Source: a virus
Reading direction: 5' to 3' (one strand)
DNA: 28,978 nucleotides
Virus genome (UHGV): UHGV-0201389
The notes under the pieces are model-generated. The model saw only the letters and a list, made by a program, of their open reading frames with translations, searched no databases and was not told where the DNA came from. Every line of letters starts with the position of its first letter. The stretch's first letter is position 1. Both the position numbers and the translations under genes were made by a program. This document shows positions 4,006 to 28,061 of the stretch, piece after piece.

Positions 4006-6066
4006 ATGACAGCAAAAAAATTACGTCGTAGCGTTGCGGTAGATGCCCCTGATTTTATCGAAGAAAAAGACGAACGAATTATTGAATTGGCTTTCTCTAG
4101 CGAGGCTCCTTATACACGTTATTACATGAATCAGGACGGCGAGCAAGTCGAATTAAAAGAGATTCTCGTACACGATGAATCAGCGGTTGATCTATCCGTT
4201 TTAAACGAAACTAACGCAAGTCTTCTGTTTAATCACAATCTGGATCTTCATATCGGCAAGATTGTTCCTGGCTCCGCTCGTATCGATGAAGATCGTGTAG
4301 GCCGTTGTCTTGTTCAATTCTCCAAAGTAGGCCAACTGGCTAATGAATGCTTTGAGAAGGTAAAGGAATCCACATTATCACAGGTTAGCGTCGGTTATAA
4401 CGTTCTTGATGGTAAAGCCGATTTTAGCAAAGGGATCTATTACGTTACTCGCTGGCAACCATATGAAGTAAGCATTGTTACGTGTGCCGCAGATCCGTTT
4501 AATGCTGGTGTTGGACGCTCTCTAAATACAGACAACGAAATGATTGTTTTGGAGGGTGAACAAGTGGAAGACGAAATTAAAGAAGAAATTAAACCGGAAG
4601 ATGAAGAAAAACGTTCCGAAGAAGATAAAGAGGAACAGGAAAATGAAGAAATTGATTCCGATTCTGGAAATAGTGTTAACAGTGGCGAAGATGTGGAAAA
4701 CCCGCAAGAAGTAACGCCAGAAGAAAAAGAAAAACGTTCCGAAGATGAACCGGAAGAAGAAATTAAACCGGAAGAAACAGAAGAACTAAATAAAGATACA
4801 GACGAGAACGACGAAACGGTAGAAGAATCCGAGACAGTCGAAGAAGAAAAGATTGAAGACGAAGAAAAACCGTTTGAACGTTCTCGCGAAGATACCGCCG
4901 AAATTCGTGCTATCGGAAAACATCTAAATATTCCAGAAGCAACGATTGAAGCTGCAATTAAAGATAGTGCCGTGACTATTGAAAATTTTAAAGAAAAAGC
5001 ACGCGCACTAAATACTACCGAATCTAAAACTTTTGTTAAAGGAAAAATTACCATGACCGATACCATTAAAACTCTGGAATCTCGTTTCGATCTTAATAAA
5101 GCTGTACGTGCAATCGCAGAGGGTAAAGCACTGACTGGCGCAGAAGCTGAATATTCTCAGGAAGAAGCACGTAAAGCCGCAGCGCGTGGTCGTGCACAGC
5201 GTTCTAACTCCGTATTCATTCCGGCGTCCGCTCTGCGTGCTAGCCAGAACATGGAATCTCTGAAACCTGTAGTTGGTGAAGAAATCCGCCATGATTGCTT
5301 CGTTGATATGATCATGGAACGCTCGATTCTGGGTAAATTGGGTGTTCGTACCATTAACGCAACTGGTCCGGTATCTCTGCCGTCTCTGACTTCCAGCAAT
5401 CTGGAAAACTTCGGTTTTGTTGCAGAAGGTCAATCCGCTGGTGAAGGTACTATCAAGTTTGCAGCACAGCCGATGACTCTTAAGACATTCAATGGAATTG
5501 TTCCTGTAACTCGTCAGGCTGCTATCACTCTGCCTAACATCGGTGCTATCGTTGGTGAGCACATGCTGAAACACAGTGCTATCGCTCTGGAAAAAGCGAT
5601 CCTGTCCAATGCTGCTAACCCTAACGCTCGTGATGGCCTGACTAAGATCCTGACCGACGCTGGCAAAGTTAAACAGATTGATTGGACCTATGCCGAGTTC
5701 CTGAAACTGGTTGCTGAACTCACAGACAAAGGTTTTAACGAATCTGATCTGGCATTTGCTACTCGTGGTGTTGTTAAAGCTGAACTGGCAGCGCAACTCA
5801 AAGCAGCTAATGTTCCGGGCTTCCTGGTAGAAGGCGATAAACTGGTTAACCGTCCGATCTATGGCTCTGGTGTAGTTGCTCAGGATACCATGCTGTTTGG
5901 TGACTTTAGCTCCCTTGTTGTTGCAGACTTCGGATCGCTGGAACTTGATTGCGACGATACCACAGGTCGCGCGGCTGGCAACCTGTACTTCCGTGTATGG
6001 GCTGATCTGGATTGGGCTGTTATGGACCATAGCGCACTGACCGTAGTTCAGAAGAAAGGCGAATGA
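4006..6066 (+). CDS. Prohead protease - acidic scaffold-like linker - major capsid protein fusion (686 aa)
   Basis: N-terminal ~180 aa resemble HK97-type prohead protease; residues ~185-290 are an extremely Glu/Asp/Lys-rich low-complexity region; C-terminal ~350 aa look like an HK97-fold major capsid protein and use strong high-expression codon bias. No separate protease or scaffold gene between portal and capsid. Ends in TGA. Confidence 0.8.
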   Translation: MTAKKLRRSVAVDAPDFIEEKDERIIELAFSSEAPYTRYYMNQDGEQVELKEILVHDESAVDLSVLNETNASLLFNHNLDLHIGKIVPGSARIDEDRVGRCLVQFSKVGQLANECFEKVKESTLSQVSVGYNVLDGKADFSKGIYYVTRWQPYEVSIVTCAADPFNAGVGRSLNTDNEMIVLEGEQVEDEIKEEIKPEDEEKRSEEDKEEQENEEIDSDSGNSVNSGEDVENPQEVTPEEKEKRSEDEPEEEIKPEETEELNKDTDENDETVEESETVEEEKIEDEEKPFERSREDTAEIRAIGKHLNIPEATIEAAIKDSAVTIENFKEKARALNTTESKTFVKGKITMTDTIKTLESRFDLNKAVRAIAEGKALTGAEAEYSQEEARKAAARGRAQRSNSVFIPASALRASQNMESLKPVVGEEIRHDCFVDMIMERSILGKLGVRTINATGPVSLPSLTSSNLENFGFVAEGQSAGEGTIKFAAQPMTLKTFNGIVPVTRQAAITLPNIGAIVGEHMLKHSAIALEKAILSNAANPNARDGLTKILTDAGKVKQIDWTYAEFLKLVAELTDKGFNESDLAFATRGVVKAELAAQLKAANVPGFLVEGDKLVNRPIYGSGVVAQDTMLFGDFSSLVVADFGSLELDCDDTTGRAAGNLYFRVWADLDWAVMDHSALTVVQKKGE

Positions 6067-6236: not shown

Positions 6237-6264
6237 TGTAAATACTCCATAAAAGGGGGTACTA

Positions 6265-6555
6265 ATGAAATTAACTGATAGCCAGATTCGCAGGGCTTTA
6301 AAATTTGCAGAAGAATTTCAGAAAATAGACGGGACAATCATTAAAGCACATCACGAATTTTCACATGTAGATACTCCTGATGGTGGCGTTACCGAAAGTG
6401 AATATCTTATTTGTGCTCGTGGTGATTTAAAATCCGGTGATATTGTCATTATCGAAGGTGTACGTAATAAAGTTGGTTACATCAAAGATGACAGATCCGG
6501 CCTTATTGAAGCCTATATTACTGTAGTAGGGGGTAAACATGGCAAGTATGAATAA
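6265..6555 (+). CDS. Small head/neck-associated protein (96 aa), function unknown
   Basis: ORF with strong SD (AAAGGGGG) between capsid and tail genes; position suggests a head completion or head-tail joining role. Confidence 0.6.
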   Translation: MKLTDSQIRRALKFAEEFQKIDGTIIKAHHEFSHVDTPDGGVTESEYLICARGDLKSGDIVIIEGVRNKVGYIKDDRSGLIEAYITVVGGKHGKYE

Positions 6556-7877: not shown

Positions 7878-10800
7878 ATGCAATCAATCCAATTTAAACG
7901 CACACAGACGGCTGGTAAAAAGCCAACGCCGGAACAATTACAGGTCGGTGAAATCGCTATTCAGATGGCAGACCATGTAATTTATACCAAAGATAAAAAT
8001 AACGCAGTAGTTCAAGTAAGTGTTTCTCCTGAAAGCCATAATGCTTTAAACACGAAAGTAGACAATAACAAGAAAACTACTGATTCTACTATCGCGGCAA
8101 ATAAAACCGAAGCTGCTAACGCTCTGGCTACCGCTAAATCTGAACTGAATAACACCATTACCACGAAAGATACAGCAACCAATAAGCGCATTGATGCTAC
8201 TAACACCACTGTTAGTAACTTAACCCAGACAGTTACGGCAAATAAAACCGACGCTGACAGCAAACATACCACTTTAACTAACACTGTTGCGGCAAACAAA
8301 TCAGCTATTGAAACTACCGTAGCGAATAACAAACGAGATGCGGACAATAAAATCTCAGCTTTAACCACTACGGTTAATGACAATAACACCGCGATCAATA
8401 GCCGTGTTGATGCCACCAACACCAATGTTAGCAATCTGACCAAAACCGTTACAGCTAACAAGTCTGATGCTGATTCTAAGATCTCCAGCTTAACGAGTAC
8501 CGTTGCGGCTAACAAATCAGCCATTGAAACTACGGTAGCGAACAATAAACGCGACGCTGATACGAAGATCACCAACTTAACCAACACTGTTAATAGCAAC
8601 CACACCGCCATTAACGCGAAGGTAGACAAAAACAAGACCGATGCAGATGCAGCGATTGCAGCCGCTAACCGTCGAATTGATGGTATTGAAGGTAGTGCCG
8701 ATGCTGCTTACATCAAGAAGAATACCAATACCTATCATCATGGCTATCTGTTAAGCAAGACTGCTAACTACTTTGATGATACCGGTGCTCGTAACCTTGA
8801 TTATTTTGGTGCGTTTCGTCCGAACAATGCCGAAGGGTGGGGTAACTTAATCCTTAACATTCCTCATTCTGGCGGTAAAGCACACGGTCGCGGCTTTGAG
8901 TTCCATTATGGGTCTAGCTCATCTCAGGTTAAAACCTATGGCTTTGATGCTAACGGTGCTAAAAGATTCAGCTATCGCATGTATCACGAAGGTGATAAAC
9001 CTACACCATCGGAATTGAACGTTTACAGCAAACAAGAAGTTGATCGTATGTTTGTTAAAAACGTTAAAATGTCGGTTCCTTCTGGTGATGCAACTCGTGG
9101 ATATTTTAAGATTGCAACCGCAATGATTCCGCAGCAAGGCAGAATGGCATTTATTCGCATCTATGGTGGTAACGGTTATAACGTTAATTCTTACGATCAA
9201 GTTGACTTTCTTGAAATTGTTATCCGTAGCGGCAACGGAAACCCTAAAGGAGTTAGTATTGCTGCATATCGTCGAAATGCTAAAAATATTCATCAAGTAT
9301 TTGCGGTTAACACTTCCGGTGATAACTACGATATCTACGTTAACTACGGTCGTTATACTGATAACGTTATTGTCGAATATGGTAAAACTAACGATGTTAC
9401 ACTGACGGTACATGACGTTCCTGAAATAACTCTCGTTAAGCCGTCCACTGGTGTTACTGATGGTAAAGTAATTACCATGTTTAACACAGAGAACAAAGCC
9501 GGAACTATTCGTTTTGATGATAATACACAGGGAACTTACGATATTATCAGTTTGTGTAATGATACTGGTGATGGTAAAAAATATCTTCGTCAGTTCCGTA
9601 GTAAATCAGGTCATACTATTTGGCATGAAACTGTTCAGGGTAGCGTGTACCGCCTAGCTACTGGCACTACTGACTCAAACGAAGTTCTTAAAATTACCGA
9701 CCGCACGCTGCAAACTGGTCGTGCTGTTCTTGATGGTGGTAATATTCGTTTAGAACGCCAGACAGGGAATAGTAACCTTGTTGAATATTGGGATCGTCGT
9801 AACGGTGCTAACGTTCGTCAATCATGGTTTGGTTTTGGTAATGCCGACACTAACGCATTCCAGATCTATAGTGATGCTGGTAAAAACAACTTTGCGTTAG
9901 AACAAAGCGGTCAGATCTCTCTTAATGTTGGTGCAACAAAAATTGTCCATACCAACGGGCAATATATTTCAACTAACGCTGATGCATATCGTATGATTTA
10001 CGGTAATTACGGTGCATTCTGGCGAAATGATGGTGTTAAAACCTATCTTCTGTCTACCGCCGAAAATGATAAATGGGGTAGCTGGACTGGAAACCGTCCA
10101 TTCATTTATGAATTTAGTTCCGGTAACGTTAATTTAGGTGGTGATTCCAATAAATCCGCATTGACCTTAGAAGGTGCAAGCAAAGCCGCTCGATTTGGTG
10201 GTCATGTTTATACTGGCGGTAACTTACATAATACTGGACAGCATATAACGATGGAAGCCGGACTTGCTGGACAATCCCGCGATTTTATTCGCTTTAACCA
10301 TTGGGGTGATAGCAGTAACGGTCGTGATAACGTCCTGTATGTGGAAGATAGCAAAGGACGTCATTTCAGCACCGAGCGTAATATGGCTACTGGTGGATTG
10401 AAAGCAAACTTCTTAGGAGACTTTGAAGTTGGTGGTAAATTGACATGGGGTAAAGGTACAGCACAATCCTCGTTTAACTGTCGTGTTTGGGGTAATGCTG
10501 ATCGTAAACAGGTTTTAGAGTGGGCTGATGAAAGCGGTTGGCATTTCTATAGCCAGCGTGCAGGTGGTCCAGGAACTACAGCGATTCAGTTTAGTGTAAA
10601 TGGACAAATCAACGCACAAAACTTGAACGTTTCTGGTAAGGTTACTACCCCGCAAATTAGCGCATTTGGTGTAAACGTTGCTAATGGATTAGGTGGCAAC
10701 TCAATTGTTTTGGGTGATAGTGATACTGGCTTTAAGCAAAACGGCGACGGTATTTTAGATGTATATGCTAACAATGTGGCAGTAATGCGTTTTACTTCCG

Positions 10801-21831: not shown

Positions 21832-21870
21832 TCCATAAATACCCTCATAGAAACTTTATGAGGGTATAAC

Positions 21871-22218
21871 ATGGCTAAAAATATTTTTACTGAATTCCCC
21901 ACTTATCCGGTCGATCAGCTCTCCGGTATTTTTATTAATGGCATTAGCCCAGAATCTATGACACATGATTTTGAGGCAAAGAGAGTACAACATAAACAAT
22001 TCAAGCAAATGATCCGCGATGATGGTAATGGGCTAGTGTTTTGTGTTGCGACACTCGCTAAACGTCCTAAGTATCGTTTTCGTGTAGGCCAAGAGATTGA
22101 CATTGATAATCCTTATAATTTCAACTGCTTAGGTGACACGCGAGCGGTTTGCTTAGGTACTGCTCCTTATTATATCAAGGGTATGCGCTTTATTGGATAT
22201 ATCTTCCAGTACCTTTAA
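21871..22218 (+). CDS. Hypothetical protein (115 aa)
   Basis: ORF with upstream GAGGG; no recognisable motifs; immediately upstream of the peptidase gene. Confidence 0.55.
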   Translation: MAKNIFTEFPTYPVDQLSGIFINGISPESMTHDFEAKRVQHKQFKQMIRDDGNGLVFCVATLAKRPKYRFRVGQEIDIDNPYNFNCLGDTRAVCLGTAPYYIKGMRFIGYIFQYL

Positions 22219-22636: not shown

Positions 22637-22701
22637 CTGGCGCAAATTGACGATAGCGCCCGTGTCGCGCAGAGTACGAGAAATCAGAATTGAAAGTTGT
22701 T

Positions 22702-22857
22702 ATGGCGGCAGATGATGAGATTTTGCCACTTGACACAAAGATCGCTTATTATCAAATGGTAATGGATTTTGCTGGTCGTGCACTGGATATTGTTAAATCT
22801 CGTGGGTTTGCGATCAAGAATGCTATAGAATTGCGTATGTTGGAATCCGGTCGATAA
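22702..22857 (+). CDS. Small hypothetical protein (51 aa), uncertain
   Basis: Sub-60-aa ORF translated manually; weak RBS; lies between two terminators. Confidence 0.3.
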   Translation: MAADDEILPLDTKIAYYQMVMDFAGRALDIVKSRGFAIKNAIELRMLESGR

Positions 22858-22877
22858 ATATATGCAGGAGGAATTTT

Positions 22878-22964
22878 ATGAGTGAATGTATTTGTAGTGT
22901 ATGCAAACAGCCAGTAGAATTGGCGTTTGTGATTAAAGTAAACGACCATGTTGTTCACCCTTAA
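22878..22964 (+). CDS. Cys-containing micro-protein (28 aa, MSECICSVCKQPVELAFVIKVNDHVVHP), uncertain
   Basis: Consensus SD AGGAGG 7 nt upstream of the ATG; CxCxxC motif; directly upstream of a bidirectional terminator. Confidence 0.35.
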   Translation: MSECICSVCKQPVELAFVIKVNDHVVHP

Positions 22965-22979
22965 AATAACTAATTATCA

Positions 22980-23012
22980 AAAAGCCCCAACCGAAAGGAA
23001 GGGGCTTAATTT
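22980..23012. terminator. Bidirectional terminator at the strand switch
   Basis: AAGCCCC...GGGGCTT stem with internal CC-gaaa-GG, T runs on both strands; abuts the helicase stop codon. Confidence 0.75.
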
Positions 23013-24506
23013 TTATGCGAGCATTATACGTTTTTGAGTCCAGTCGAATTTATCGGATATATAACACTTTATTCTTTCAAGCGCATGACTAACAGCATAA
23101 TTCTTACGGGTAACTTTTCCATTCTTACCCACAATGCAAAGGTCGTCTATCAAATCCCATACTACCGCAATTGCTTTACTACCATGTTTCCTAAGAGCAC
23201 GTCCTATTGATTGCCGGACAATGGTTGATTCTTTAACCGGATGACCAAAGATGACATGGTGTAGATTCTTAATCGAAACACCAGTAGAGAAAACACCATA
23301 GGAGGCAACTACAATCAATCCTTTCTCATTTTCAGCCATTTTCTTTAAGGCATCGCGTTCGGCGGTGGTAATCTCACTGGAAACGTAATAAACCTTATCG
23401 TAAACGCGCTGTAATGCATTATAAAGCATTTTTCCATGCTTAGAGTACCGGAACATCAAAAATACGTTTTCTTGCTTTCTAGCGAGTTTTAAGGCCAATT
23501 CACAAGCCAGTTTATTCCTTGCTTTGTGACCATTGATGAATTTAATCTCTTCCTGATAATCTTTACCCCGCATTGCTTTACATTCTTCATCCTTGTACTT
23601 GAGGAAGAGAGCATTAATCTTAAGCTGGGTAACTTGTCCGTCATCCATCAATTGTTTTATTGCTACTATCTTCTGAATATCACCAAACAACCCGACATAT
23701 TGCATTAAATGGCATTTTGATTCTTTCGGGGAACCAGTCATACCGATTTTGAACTGGCAGTGATTCATTCCGTTGATGATGTTGGTGATATTCTTTGCAC
23801 TGGCACGATGTGATTCATCAACTATCAACATTCCATATTGTCGGAACCATTCAGGAGGCATCTTGCAAGCTGATTGCCATGTACTGACAGTGATTAACCT
23901 GTCTCCCGGATGTTTCCCGCTACCACTCATCATTGTATGGATTGCTTCATGAGGGAATAGCCTATAATCGACAAAATCATCCCTCATTTGAACCACCAGC
24001 GATGTAGTCGGGACAATGATTAGAATCTTTCCGGTGTAGTTCTCCAGATACCAACGAGACAGCATACAAGCAATCAATGACTTACCCGCACTGGTAGGAA
24101 GAACCAGCATTCTACGGCGATTATGGATACCCTGAAATACTGCCTCCCTTTGATACCAGTAAGGATTGATTTTATTGCTACCGGAATACACTTCTAAAGA
24201 GTCAATCCATGAATCAATCTGTTCTTTGGTTACATCTTCCTTCTCAAGCAATCTGGGGTCTACCCATACGCTATAGCCCATGTTTTTAGCGAAGATACCC
24301 AATGTTTTCAATAATCCGATTGGCAGGGTATTTTCATGCGTAAACAGTCTTATCTTTCCATCCCAGCCGGAATATTTGTAGCGGGGGCTAAATCTAGCCC
24401 CTTCAACCTCAAACGAGAAATAATCTCTTAATTCCATCCCAATGGAAGGAGAGCATTCAACCTTAACGAAACTGTAATCTTGAAAATGAATGTTAATATC
24501 TTGCAT
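23013..24506 (-). CDS. uvsW: UvsW-type SF2 DNA helicase (start at ATG 24506; the listed ORF extends to GTG 24515)
   Basis: Walker A LPTSAGKS, DExH-type motif II IVDESH, and an N-terminal domain (HFQDYSFVKVEC...LRDYFSF) characteristic of T4 UvsW-like helicases; ATG overlaps the stop of the upstream gene (TAATG). Confidence 0.85.
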   Translation of the reverse strand: MQDINIHFQDYSFVKVECSPSIGMELRDYFSFEVEGARFSPRYKYSGWDGKIRLFTHENTLPIGLLKTLGIFAKNMGYSVWVDPRLLEKEDVTKEQIDSWIDSLEVYSGSNKINPYWYQREAVFQGIHNRRRMLVLPTSAGKSLIACMLSRWYLENYTGKILIIVPTTSLVVQMRDDFVDYRLFPHEAIHTMMSGSGKHPGDRLITVSTWQSACKMPPEWFRQYGMLIVDESHRASAKNITNIINGMNHCQFKIGMTGSPKESKCHLMQYVGLFGDIQKIVAIKQLMDDGQVTQLKINALFLKYKDEECKAMRGKDYQEEIKFINGHKARNKLACELALKLARKQENVFLMFRYSKHGKMLYNALQRVYDKVYYVSSEITTAERDALKKMAENEKGLIVVASYGVFSTGVSIKNLHHVIFGHPVKESTIVRQSIGRALRKHGSKAIAVVWDLIDDLCIVGKNGKVTRKNYAVSHALERIKCYISDKFDWTQKRIMLA

Positions 24507-25075
24507 TAGTTCCACTCCACACTTGCAATATTCTTTATATTGTTTAGTGATTTATTGCAGTAGTGGAATGTTTCAGTTTTGCCGTATTCAATCCCGCCTA
24601 TACCCACATCCAACATTCTCTTTATTGCTCGCTCAGTGGCTAGCGCATGTTTCATTGATGGCATTTCACGAGCATAGACAATATCAAAGTTATGACCGGG
24701 ATTGCGTAAGCCCAGATTAACCCTACGTTTGATAATCGATTTTGTTACACCAAATTTACCAATATCGCCGGATTGCATCACATAGAGATATGGTACACCC
24801 GCTTTATATTGAAAATAATCACTCTTGAAACATACACAGCGTTTGCCTTCATTAAGCAGGTTAGTAGCTGATTTGTCGGCTCTATCACCGCAGCGAGTAC
24901 ATGTAAGAGCAATTCTCGTGTGAAGCCCTTTAAACTCACCCAGAAAGCCATGAAAGACTAACGGTAAGTCATTATCTTTGATGTGAGTAAGAATGCGTTG
25001 TTCTAATGCTGGTGGAGTTACAGCACGGGATGATTTAGGAGTAAAAACAATATCTTTAGCCATTACTGGAATCAT
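24506..25075 (-). CDS. Zn-ribbon + T5orf172/GIY-YIG-like domain protein (189 aa)
   Basis: CTRCGD...CVC zinc-ribbon-like Cys cluster followed by YLYVMQ...KFGVTKS...R...GKTETF, matching the T5orf172 (GIY-YIG-like) pattern; SD GTGAGG upstream; coupled to the helicase gene. Confidence 0.65.
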   Translation of the reverse strand: MIPVMAKDIVFTPKSSRAVTPPALEQRILTHIKDNDLPLVFHGFLGEFKGLHTRIALTCTRCGDRADKSATNLLNEGKRCVCFKSDYFQYKAGVPYLYVMQSGDIGKFGVTKSIIKRRVNLGLRNPGHNFDIVYAREMPSMKHALATERAIKRMLDVGIGGIEYGKTETFHYCNKSLNNIKNIASVEWN

Positions 25076-25229
25076 ATAGACCTCACTTTAACTTATAGGC
25101 AAAACCCTCAATATGGTTGGTTTGTAACTTTAGGGTCGCGGATTATATATCAAAGTTAGTACAGATGCAATAGTGAGATAATTTTATCCAATAAATAGTA
25201 GTGAACTTATAATTTTAGAGGAAACTACT
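25076..25229. promoter_or_regulatory. AT-rich divergent intergenic region with candidate sigma70-like promoter for the + strand gene
   Basis: TTGTAA (25122-25127), 16-nt spacer, TATATA (25144-25149); SD AGAGGA before the ATG at 25230; a leftward promoter for the helicase operon is expected here too but was not resolved. Confidence 0.4.
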
Positions 25230-26255
25230 ATGAAACTAGCATTTGCCAAAGACATTGATTTTGTGAAAGTTGGTAAGCAGAAAACACCGCAATTCTACGA
25301 AGAAATCTGTATTGAATATGCACACAAGACTAAGAAGACTTTCAAAGGATTTATCCTACCGTGGGAAGCCAACCGAACCAGAACAATGTTTATTGACAAT
25401 GAAAGCGGTAAAGAATCTACACCGATGTTGATCAACGTTCGTACATCATGGGGGAAGGTTAAAGGATGCAAACTGGACAAGGGTATCAGTCCGACGGTAA
25501 AACATAAGGCAATGAATCTTTCCAGCGAGAAGAAGCAACAAAAATTAGAGAAACTATACTCAGATGTGAGAAAAGCCGTGGAACACGGTAATAATAAACT
25601 GATTCGAATCACAGGAGAGTTACCAAGCCGCTATAAGTCATATGCTGAATGTAAATGTCTTATCCATAATGAAATCTTTGTTCGAAATTGTCGGGACTTG
25701 ATTCATAAAGGTAGCGCCGCGTGTCCTCAGTGCTTATCTGTCATGCGTTCTATGCAAAATGGTATTTCTCATTACAAATATCATGGAAAAATCAGACCTG
25801 TATCTCTCTATATCCAGTCTCTAGATAAAGAGTTCATCAAATTTGGCATCTCTATCAATCCAGAAGCACGAATGAGAGAACAACAAAGAAACTCACCATT
25901 CATTCATAGTCTGGTTTATACGCATGAATTTAAGGAAGGTTGGAAAGCAGTTGATGTTGAATATGGAATTAAAACCATTTTTAAAGGAAAGAAACTAACC
26001 ATTGATGATTTATCGACCGGATATACAGAAACACGGGATTACAAGTTACTCTCAGAAATTATTAAATTCGTTGATGATTACATCAAAACCGATCCTACCG
26101 TACCGCAATACATTCAAGACGAAAATGAATTCTGGTCACAGATTGGCGGTGATTTTGAACTAGAAGAATCAACGTTCGTGTTTCCAGATACCAGCGATGA
26201 GGAATATTACAATAATTTAGCAGAACTTGATTTAAGCCCTTTAGACACTCTCTAA
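25230..26255 (+). CDS. Zn-ribbon + T5orf172/GIY-YIG-like domain protein with extra N-terminal domain (341 aa)
   Basis: CKC...C...CPQC Cys cluster followed by LYIQS...KFGISINPEAR...GYTETRDY, paralogous in architecture to the 189-aa protein on the opposite strand; acidic C-terminus. Confidence 0.65.
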   Translation: MKLAFAKDIDFVKVGKQKTPQFYEEICIEYAHKTKKTFKGFILPWEANRTRTMFIDNESGKESTPMLINVRTSWGKVKGCKLDKGISPTVKHKAMNLSSEKKQQKLEKLYSDVRKAVEHGNNKLIRITGELPSRYKSYAECKCLIHNEIFVRNCRDLIHKGSAACPQCLSVMRSMQNGISHYKYHGKIRPVSLYIQSLDKEFIKFGISINPEARMREQQRNSPFIHSLVYTHEFKEGWKAVDVEYGIKTIFKGKKLTIDDLSTGYTETRDYKLLSEIIKFVDDYIKTDPTVPQYIQDENEFWSQIGGDFELEESTFVFPDTSDEEYYNNLAELDLSPLDTL

Positions 26256-26270
26256 CGCAATTAAATTAAA

Positions 26271-26292
26271 AAGGGGTACATCTGTACCCCTT
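26271..26292 (-). terminator. Perfect 22-bp palindrome serving as terminator for the recombinase gene (alternative reading: recombination site)
   Basis: AAGGGGTACA-TC-TGTACCCCTT; on the minus strand the stem is followed by TTTTTAATTT, 37 nt downstream of the recombinase stop. Confidence 0.6.
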
Positions 26293-26328
26293 AAAGCGTT
26301 TAGCTCGTTATACGTCGATTTAGGCCGC

Positions 26329-28008
26329 TTAAATTCCAAATTCTTGCAATGGACCTGGTATTTCTTCTTCTGGTTTCCAGTTCTTATCTGTCAGCATGTC
26401 TAAACATGGATGCAGAACAAGCCCGTTACTTTCCAGAATCTGCCTATCATTGATAGTCTTCAAATCAATGAATATCCGGCCTTTCCTCGTTCCTCTTGAA
26501 TTTTCTATTACAACTCTCTGGGTCTTACCATCAACGTATTCCAGTACAAACAAGTTTTTGTTCCTGTCAATCCTTCTACACCCGATCCGCTTTAGAGCTT
26601 GCTTAATCTTAAACCGGACCTTGATTCGTTCCTCATTGTAAACATCTTCTAAATCAAATTCTGCGAGCTTCTCCCAGCCTTGAGAGTCCACAGAATACAT
26701 TTCCTCTTCTGCCATCTTAATCTGATTGTAGAGTGTTTCACGCTCGCTATTAAGGGCAGTAATCTGATCGGCTAGTTCCTTCGTTGCTCCTGTCATAGCA
26801 GAAAGGGCGATCAGGTTATCAATCTTGCGTGATATTTCATCAATCTGTACTTTCAACGCCGGAACCGGGTTAGCCTTATCCTCAGCAATCCAGATTTTAT
26901 CAGCCAGCAATTGCAATACAGCTTTCTCTAATTGGTCGCCGCGAAAACTCCAGTTTGGATGCTCGCAATCAAGTCTACGTGAACGTGTCGCATCACATGT
27001 ATAACGATACTGGTCAGAACGTTTGTTTGTTCCCTTCACTTTAACCATAGCGCAACCGCAATGATCACATTTCAATAGGCCAATGCCACTAAGCAAGGGG
27101 ATCGGTTTAACTTCTTCCTTATCTCCAAAATTCCATGCTCTAGCACCAATATTTTTCTTAAGGTGATAGAACGTAGGGTCGTCAATAACACGAGGGTAAT
27201 AATTGTTTAACTCATAGTTAACGCCATCTACAGAGACCTCCTTGATACCAATCAAAGCGCGGGTATGGAACAATCTTTCAACCATTGCCCGTGACCATTT
27301 TGAATGCTTCTTATTACTAACCGCTGGTGGTGGTGTATATGTCTCGTTAAGGTGATCCAGTATTTCGGCGGTTGAACGTCCATTCTTCCGTAATTCCACA
27401 ATCTCCTGAACAACAGGGAAGTATGTCGGATGAGGCAGCACATAACCGGAAGTGGTATCAGTCCACCACATATTCTTTCCGACTTCCTCGATAGCAACAG
27501 CCGGATTCTGGGGATTTTCTTGATGAGCTTTAATCTTAATCAATGCGCTTGAGTTAGTACGATTGCGCTTAGTCTGGCTTTCCTCGTTAGCCCTGGCAAA
27601 TAGCATGACACTCAAGAGTAAATCGATGGGATTAGCATTAACCGATTCACGGCTATACACTCTGCCATCCATACCAGTGACAATAGTTATTCCCCTACGG
27701 ATAATCGAGAGAAATAGCTCTTGTGCTTCAATGATGGACTGGCGAGAGATACGGTCCAAGTTTTCCACAACCAACCAGCTACCAACAGGAACGGATCGAC
27801 CAATCTCATCCAGAAAGCGGGATAATGCACCTGTTTTACTGTTAGCCCCTTTGAATGCTGATACACCAAAATCCTGATAGCTTGTAACTAGCTCAAGATC
27901 ATATTTTGCGGCAATCTCTGCGGCTGTTCTCTTCTGGCGTTCATAAGAACTACCATCCGCTTGCTTCATAGACGAGAAGCGAATATACGAATACAGTTTA
28001 GTTTTCAT
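26329..28008 (-). CDS. Large serine recombinase (integrase/resolvase family, ~559 aa from ATG 28008; the listed ORF extends to GTG 28059)
   Basis: N-terminal resolvase motifs YSYIRFSS (catalytic Ser), DFGVSAF, LVVENLDRISR; central recombinase domain; CDHCGC...C...C zinc ribbon; C-terminal coiled coil. Confidence 0.85.
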   Translation of the reverse strand: MKTKLYSYIRFSSMKQADGSSYERQKRTAAEIAAKYDLELVTSYQDFGVSAFKGANSKTGALSRFLDEIGRSVPVGSWLVVENLDRISRQSIIEAQELFLSIIRRGITIVTGMDGRVYSRESVNANPIDLLLSVMLFARANEESQTKRNRTNSSALIKIKAHQENPQNPAVAIEEVGKNMWWTDTTSGYVLPHPTYFPVVQEIVELRKNGRSTAEILDHLNETYTPPPAVSNKKHSKWSRAMVERLFHTRALIGIKEVSVDGVNYELNNYYPRVIDDPTFYHLKKNIGARAWNFGDKEEVKPIPLLSGIGLLKCDHCGCAMVKVKGTNKRSDQYRYTCDATRSRRLDCEHPNWSFRGDQLEKAVLQLLADKIWIAEDKANPVPALKVQIDEISRKIDNLIALSAMTGATKELADQITALNSERETLYNQIKMAEEEMYSVDSQGWEKLAEFDLEDVYNEERIKVRFKIKQALKRIGCRRIDRNKNLFVLEYVDGKTQRVVIENSRGTRKGRIFIDLKTINDRQILESNGLVLHPCLDMLTDKNWKPEEEIPGPLQEFGI

Positions 28009-28061
28009 ACCATTTCCAAACAAAAACGCCCCGACCGAAGTCGAGGCGATATTACACACAT

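Follow-up and report, generated by a model that had tools for sequence, protein, structure and literature searches.

Intrinsic (Rho-independent) terminators of bacteria consist of a G+C-rich stem of 7-9 bp, a 4-nt loop and a run of U residues immediately 3' of the stem, they have an A-rich stretch 5' of the stem, and they lie tens of nucleotides past a stop codon, also in the gap between convergent genes. The attachment sites of large serine integrases, e.g., those of phiC31, Bxb1, TP901-1 and the A118-type enzymes, are characterized by inverted symmetry around a non-palindromic dinucleotide and are located near the recombinase gene. They are about 40-50 bp long, with imperfectly symmetric half-sites of about 20-25 bp to which the recombinase and zinc-ribbon domains bind, and in attP long imperfect arms enclose the non-palindromic 2-bp core. 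In the tI/sib retroregulator of phage lambda, a conserved hairpin and 3'UTR directly follow the integrase gene, and integration separates sib from int. The genomes of T5-like phages contain the inverted repeats IRB and IRB' in conserved untranslated Repeat Regions 1 and 2, with IRB' in Region 2 (Davison, bioRxiv 10.1101/866236, where the IRA/IRB-type names follow the nomenclature of Wang 2005).

The locus described here lies in a window of 28,978 nt (the whole stretch of viral DNA that was analysed), in which the genes for a large serine recombinase and a GIY-YIG/T5orf172-like protein converge (Table 1). A palindrome, AAGGGGTACA-TC-TGTACCCCTT, with two perfect arms of 10 nt and a 2-nt centre, is located 36 nt past the stop codon of the integrase gene and 15 nt from that of the opposing gene, and its symmetry ends after 10 bp per arm. 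An earlier sequence-only reading had described this perfect inverted repeat with its TC centre, its location in the convergent gap between the T5orf172 gene and the recombinase gene, and a T tract on the minus strand. The palindrome and the gene arrangement were found as described, although the interval assigned to the repeat, 26256-26328, is the whole 73-nt gap from stop codon to stop codon, and the T tract is TTTTTAATTTAATT at 26259-26272; on the sense strand of the recombinase gene the palindrome is directly followed by TTTAATTTAATT.

Table 1. Coordinates of the features at the integrase locus (window positions)
Feature	Position	Strand	Description
Convergent GIY-YIG-superfamily endonuclease-like gene	25230..26255	+	341 aa; PF13455 (MUG113, GIY-YIG/T5orf172 clan) at cutoff; phrog_681 endonuclease
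U/T-rich tail	26259..26270	-	UUU AA UUU AA UU; five consecutive U if the two stem-closing U are counted
Predicted terminator hairpin	26271..26292	-	RNA AAGGGGUAC-AGAU-GUACCCCUU; 9-bp stem, 5 G-C, tetraloop
Conserved 3'UTR element	26293..26333	-	TTTAAGCGGCCTAAATCGACGTATAACGAGCTAAACGCTTT; overlaps recombinase stop codon 26329-26331; BLAST matches to T5-like phages
Large serine recombinase (prophage integrase) gene	26329..28008	-	559 aa, starts MKTKLYSYIRFSS; PF00239, PF07508, PF13408; phrog_95 integrase
Upstream terminator-like hairpin	28027..28048	-	CGCCTCGAC-TTCG-GTCGGGGCG + TTTTTGTTT

It should be noted that the palindrome is by itself only weakly non-random. The window contains two perfect inverted repeats with arms of at least 10 nt and a spacer of at most 8 nt, and 60 simulated windows (first-order Markov) had a mean of 0.45 such repeats, with at least one in 15 of the 60, showing that a perfect inverted repeat of this length is not rare at this window size. 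The reality of the palindrome as a feature rests on its conservation and its position. The second perfect palindrome of the window (ATACCCTCAT-N7-ATGAGGGTAT, 21840-21866), in which one further A-T pair would reduce the loop to 5 nt, is not followed by a T-run; the GAGGG ribosome-binding site of an ORF that starts at 21871 falls within the right arm, and the palindrome may be a translational control hairpin.

The anatomy of the RNA closely resembles that of the canonical terminators. In silico folding of both strands yielded, in the minimum free energy (MFE) as well as the centroid structures, a stem of 9 bp with a tetraloop, in which GGGGUAC/GUACCCC and two additional A-U pairs would form the stem. 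The MFE of the minus-strand 85-mer was -21.6 kcal/mol (z = -2.7 for the whole stretch), and for the plus strand the centroid of the hairpin alone had -15.0 kcal/mol (z = -3.7 for the whole 71-nt stretch). A loop of two nucleotides had been regarded as sterically awkward, but this objection fails because the innermost A-U pair stays open and the loop becomes a tetraloop. In the RNA the hairpin is followed by UUUUUAAUUU, its 3' side on the minus strand being CCCC-UUUUU-AAUUUAAUU, and a scan with a terminator consensus flagged the site on this strand with 9 pairs (5 G-C), a loop of 4 nt and the tail TTTAATTTAA. The stem is G+C-rich and longer than the minimum of 5 bp for intrinsic terminators, the loop is within the range of 3-8 nt, a U-tract lies 3' of the stem, and the whole is located shortly after a stop codon; the A-rich sequence 5' of the stem (AAAAA, on the opposite strand) and the position in a convergent gap, tens of nucleotides past the stop codon, are also as in canonical terminators. 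There is no essential difference from these, with the qualifications that the U-tract is interrupted (UUUUUAAUUUAAUU) and that the function is predicted. Together with the conservation pattern described below, anatomy, fold and position argue for the sequence-only reading of the palindrome as the terminator of the recombinase transcript, and very probably it encodes the intrinsic terminator of the minus-strand integrase mRNA. RNA polymerase would pause on the U-tract, the hairpin would form, and the transcript would be released about 55-65 nt past the stop codon.

The hairpin is located between two convergent genes, and therefore it would probably also shield the integrase gene against transcription that comes from the GIY-YIG/T5orf172-like gene on the opposite strand. 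Termination of the transcript of that gene itself, in the plus direction, is plausible, but it should be weaker because the tail after the hairpin is UUAAAGCGUUUAG in this direction. In comparison with terminators that are shared by convergent genes, the tail for the opposite direction is poor, and bidirectional action is uncertain.

The region 3' of the recombinase gene was compared among 28 IMG/VR loci and E. coli lysogens, which yielded 19 distinct sequences. The stem, AAGGGGTAC/GTACCCCTT, was invariant in all of them with the exception of a single A to C change at the base, which was also the only unpaired case where both bases were present, so that eight of the nine outer stem pairs were never broken. 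In contrast, the four central nucleotides were AGAT, ATCT, ATCC, ATTC or ATTT, and the central dinucleotide was GA, TC or TT. The tenth, innermost A-T pair of the arms was broken in 10 of the 19 homologues; the perfect 10+2+10 form is present in the window but is not the conserved state, and the conserved unit is a stem of 9 bp with a loop of 4 nt. Two variants carried deletions of 1-2 nt at the edge of the loop that leave a stem of 8 bp (GGGGTA-TTAG-TACCCC and GGGGTA-ATTCG-TACCCC). The T-run was retained in all homologues, apart from two sequences with G in place of the fifth T and another two with an additional T. A fixed stem with a loop that is free in sequence and length is what a structural hairpin predicts, and it is the opposite of the prediction for a crossover site or a dimeric operator, both of which need a fixed centre and a fixed spacing. 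The pattern would be the signature of selection on the hairpin, and not on its centre or on the spacing of half-sites.

Two limits of this comparison have to be considered. The stem never varies, compensatory changes are absent and the covariation score is 0 for the 19 distinct sequences, so that covariation cannot be invoked for the hairpin. In addition, the last 600 nt of the integrase gene and the UTR are unusually conserved as a whole, and part of the invariance of the stem could therefore be due to recent recombination instead of selection. The AGAT and ATCT loops (26280-26283 in the window, and relatives) are reverse complements of one another; small loop inversions arise at hairpins, and the difference looks like such an event. 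The type of loop tends to accompany the type of the downstream cassette.

The same variation bears on the possibility that the palindrome is not an RNA element but a DNA operator for a dimeric regulator of the convergent genes, for example, a Rha-type or other repressor. Perfect dyad symmetry with 10 bp per arm and strong conservation of the arms would be in line with protein binding. However, the centre of the hairpin varies in sequence (the 4-nt variants) as well as in length (the deletions of 1-2 nt), and the latter would change the spacing of the half-sites of an operator; furthermore, the site is where the two genes end, not in the vicinity of a promoter, the conserved T-run follows directly, and no second copy of the palindrome is present anywhere in the prophage. 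An operator is highly improbable.

The sequence-only reading had also raised the possibility that the palindrome doubles as a recombination site, since inverted-repeat arms around a central dinucleotide are typical of the crossover sites of serine recombinases, and had proposed to search for it at prophage junctions. Considered here was a role of the palindrome, alone or besides another one, in crossover or binding by the adjacent large serine recombinase. The resemblance to such sites is only formal: two inverted arms enclose the non-palindromic TC, and the gene nearby encodes a serine recombinase. The junctions could be located in five lysogens. In four E. coli strains (FDAARGOS_1267, PSJ-22, GN4741 and ETEC1739) the prophage interrupts ycdX, and in strain 06-00048 a relative is integrated in codB; in all five the junctions lie 5' of the integrase gene, some 2.6-2.9 kb away from the hairpin at its 3' end. 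The attachment sites were derived by comparing attL and attR of ETEC1739 with the intact ycdX of K-12. The site in ycdX, attB, is ...CCATCCCGGA-AA-TCCCAAATATG..., and the reconstructed attP is GTGTTATTGTGGGTACATGATATTAGGG-AA-CCCAAACGTAGTCAACCCCCAATAACAC, also written GTGTTATTGTGGGTACATGATATTAGGG-AA-CCCAAACGTAGTCAACCCCCAATAAC AC. This attP is an imperfect palindrome of 58 bp with an AA core and dyad symmetry at 20 of 30 arm positions, including an outer motif GTGTTATTG(T/G)GGGT, and matches the architecture expected for attP sites of serine integrases. It is located about 2.7 kb from the hairpin, roughly 17-75 nt beyond the right end of the window (28978); the last 43 nt of the window are identical to the sequence before attR in PSJ-22 and ETEC1739, which shows that the window ends some 45 nt before the crossover point.

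Clean junctions were present in PSJ-22, GN4741 and ETEC1739. In FDAARGOS_1267, about 55 bp of ycdX to the right of the crossover (attR) differ from K-12 at 14 positions, although the altered stretch still encodes a YcdX-like peptide, and the phage-side arm is also variant; this could be a mosaic or the result of gene conversion at the attachment site.

Neither attP nor attB is similar to the palindrome, which lies away from the prophage junctions. Its arms of 9-10 bp are much shorter than the half-sites of this enzyme class, its central dinucleotide varies and the deletions alter the spacing of the arms, in contrast to the att sites of phiC31, Bxb1, TP901-1 and A118-type integrases. A partner site is also missing: the hairpin pattern occurs once per element, always immediately 3' of the recombinase gene, i.e., as a single copy in the window and in each of 26 matching IMG/VR viral contigs, nearly all of them recombinase-bearing relatives. 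Of 5426 complete E. coli genomes, 55 contained a match to a 79-nt stretch that includes the hairpin, and no second copy or partner site was found in the window, in the 26 contigs or elsewhere in the 5426 genomes, while invertases and resolvases require at least two sites (hix, gix or res) per replicon. An octamer, GGGTACAT, is common to the hairpin and to the P arm of attP in some lysogens (chance estimate about 2%), but it is not within the dyad-symmetric portion of attP, and the P arm of FDAARGOS_1267 (GGGTTTAT) lacks it.

The relative in codB provides a further argument. The overall identity of its integrase is 77%, but no more than 52-60% remains in residues 181-360, the part that comprises the recombinase and zinc-ribbon DNA-recognition domains; the enzyme would represent a natural switch of specificity with the divergence mainly in this part of the protein. 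The identity of the integrase genes is 57-78% at the nucleotide level over most of their length, whereas it is 97-100% for 3'UTR, hairpin and T-run, with hairpin and T-run being 100% identical. The hairpin therefore does not track the specificity of the integrase, and taken together with the location of the attachment sites, the variable centre and the lack of a partner, this contradicts a role of the palindrome as a crossover site, which is now extremely improbable.

The position of attP also matters for the comparison with lambda. By analogy with tI/sib, hairpin and 3'UTR could in principle affect the stability of the int mRNA. However, the fold contained no extended helix with downstream sequence like that of sib, and no structure of the RNase III type was evident; in addition, attP is on the other side of int here, so that integration would not separate the hairpin from int, as it does with sib in lambda. 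The T-run of the strong terminator-like hairpin upstream ends about 10 nt ahead of the integrase start codon, and together with the 3' hairpin it brackets the recombinase gene. It is so near the ATG that there is no room for a promoter in between, and the integrase would apparently be expressed only with read-through or antitermination at this upstream hairpin.

The window represents a temperate E. coli prophage of the siphovirus type. PHROG profiles identified a large terminase, a portal protein, a fusion of head protease and major capsid protein, a major tail protein, a tape measure protein, a distal tail protein and tail-fibre proteins. The integrase contains Resolvase, Recombinase and Zn_ribbon_recom domains and corresponds to an annotated recombinase CDS of 1680 nt in E. 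coli lysogens. Megablast matches had suggested a T4-like phage (tail fibre of the RB49 type, UvsW, UvsY), which was ruled out by the siphovirus structural module of the lambda/HK97 style and by synteny with E. coli prophages of about 35 kb. Homologues of T4 UvsY and UvsW are encoded at 22690-24515, with about 75% nucleotide identity to phages of the RB49 group, and a tail-fibre segment (8744-9695) is 78-83% identical to T4-like gp37.

The same recombinase (77-97% identity) is encoded on 28 IMG/VR contigs of about 20-45 kb, nearly all of which align with the window over 17-29 kb, and 57 of the 5426 complete E. coli genomes contain related sequence. The phage collection contained no close sequenced free phage, the best recombinase matches being about 32% identical, and no match was retrieved in a literature search for a ycdX prophage or a ycdX serine integrase. 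Divergent copies were sought among the GTDB species representatives: a pattern scan found none, and a protein-guided scan found only one contig of 512 bp (JANCAF010000145.1, from an assembly of the actinomycete Actinacidiphila), which is 97% identical to the integrase and almost certainly reflects contamination of the assembly with E. coli DNA.

On the other side of the hairpin, the slot between the gene for the UvsW-like helicase and the hairpin (about 24500-26255) is occupied by different GIY-YIG/T5orf172-like cassettes in different relatives, and T4-like and T5-like phages carry homologues of the cassette gene as free-standing endonuclease genes. T5.011 was compared with the convergent T5orf172-like gene as a candidate homologue, but there was no similarity, and T5.011 is a DUF7566 protein. 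The breakpoints of similarity cluster at 26222-26261, just past the T-run. This raises the possibility that hairpin and 3'UTR are mainly the boundary of a module, which would be kept uniform by repeated homologous exchange or by co-conversion with the variable cassettes by homing endonucleases, and that the shape of a terminator is incidental or secondary. Besides the variable endonuclease cassettes and the clustered breakpoints, the rise of conservation toward the 3' end of the integrase gene fits with such a boundary, as does the occurrence of the 3'UTR element in T5-like phages, where the two copies of T5 flank an insertion with an HNH endonuclease. However, it leaves the variation of the loop versus the fixed stem and the conservation of the U-tract unaccounted for, and it is compatible with a terminator instead of replacing it. 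As the main explanation of the locus, a module boundary is very unlikely.

A further feature of the interval is the sequence between the stop codon and the hairpin (TTTAAGCGGCCTAAATCGACGTATAACGAGCTAAACGC, 26296-26333). The 3'UTR element is 87-89% identical over 45 bp to non-coding DNA of T5-like phages (BLAST E about 1e-6), and 190 records matched it, most of them T5-like phages of Escherichia and Salmonella. In T5 (NC_005859) the match at 6260-6296 forms an inverted repeat of 37 nt with a partner at 5275-5311, and the HNH gene hegG lies between these arms. From its position and the inverted arrangement, this pair was identified as IRB/IRB', and the element shares TTTAAGCGGCCTAAAWCG-N5-TAACGAGCTAAACGC with IRB'. 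The arrangement differs in that IRB/IRB' of T5-like phages are an inverted-repeat pair in non-coding DNA of the first-step transfer, with IRB' between divergent promoters, whereas the prophage contains a single copy of the element inside a 3'UTR. The exact 30-nt pattern was confined, among viral contigs, to this prophage family and T5-like genomes, and a looser pattern added one phage contig of 348 kb and one contig of 38 kb. A similarity of the hairpin to the T5 IRA/IRA' repeat (GGGTACATCT...TAAAG) was rejected, because the local-alignment score of 27 compares with 22 +/- 2 for shuffles, 9 of 300 were as high, and the best alignment was elsewhere. In one subgroup, about 260 bp are inserted between the equivalents of 26328 and 26329, right after the integrase stop codon; the insert contains a small ORF on the same strand (MKMIKILGLILSMNSCLALA..., similar to a signal peptide or lipoprotein), and element and hairpin then follow.

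A conserved RNA structure was not found in the 3'UTR element, as a pairing of AAGCG with CGCUU is predicted in the window but is absent in most relatives. The T5 version of the element folds no better than shuffles (z = -1.3), and an Rfam scan of 25900-26700 with permissive E-values yielded only noise (TarB with 17 bits versus a gathering score of 80). Among the prophages of this family, the conservation of the element does not exceed that of the final 600 nt of the integrase gene, while in the codB relative it is 97% identical where the integrase gene falls to 72-78%. It is conceivable, but unlikely, that the block of about 75 nt that comprises the IRB'-like element and the hairpin is a module common to temperate E. 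coli prophages and to the first-step-transfer region of T5-like phages, which would act either as a 3'UTR-derived sRNA with the terminator as the end that binds Hfq or ProQ, or as a DNA target of a homing endonuclease or of a factor from host or phage.

The hairpin behind the integrase gene is very probably an ordinary feature of a known kind, a routine terminator, and its analysis has removed the tempting false lead of a second recombination site. The window represents an uncharacterised E. coli prophage family that integrates into ycdX via a large serine integrase, and an attP/attB pair is now defined for this family, together with a codB variant; such pairs are of practical interest for genome engineering. 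Moreover, the analysis exposes a sequence link between the 3'UTR of the integrase gene and a conserved non-coding repeat of T5-like phages; if the block of about 75 nt were indeed a functional module, it would provide a first handle on the conserved T5 repeats.
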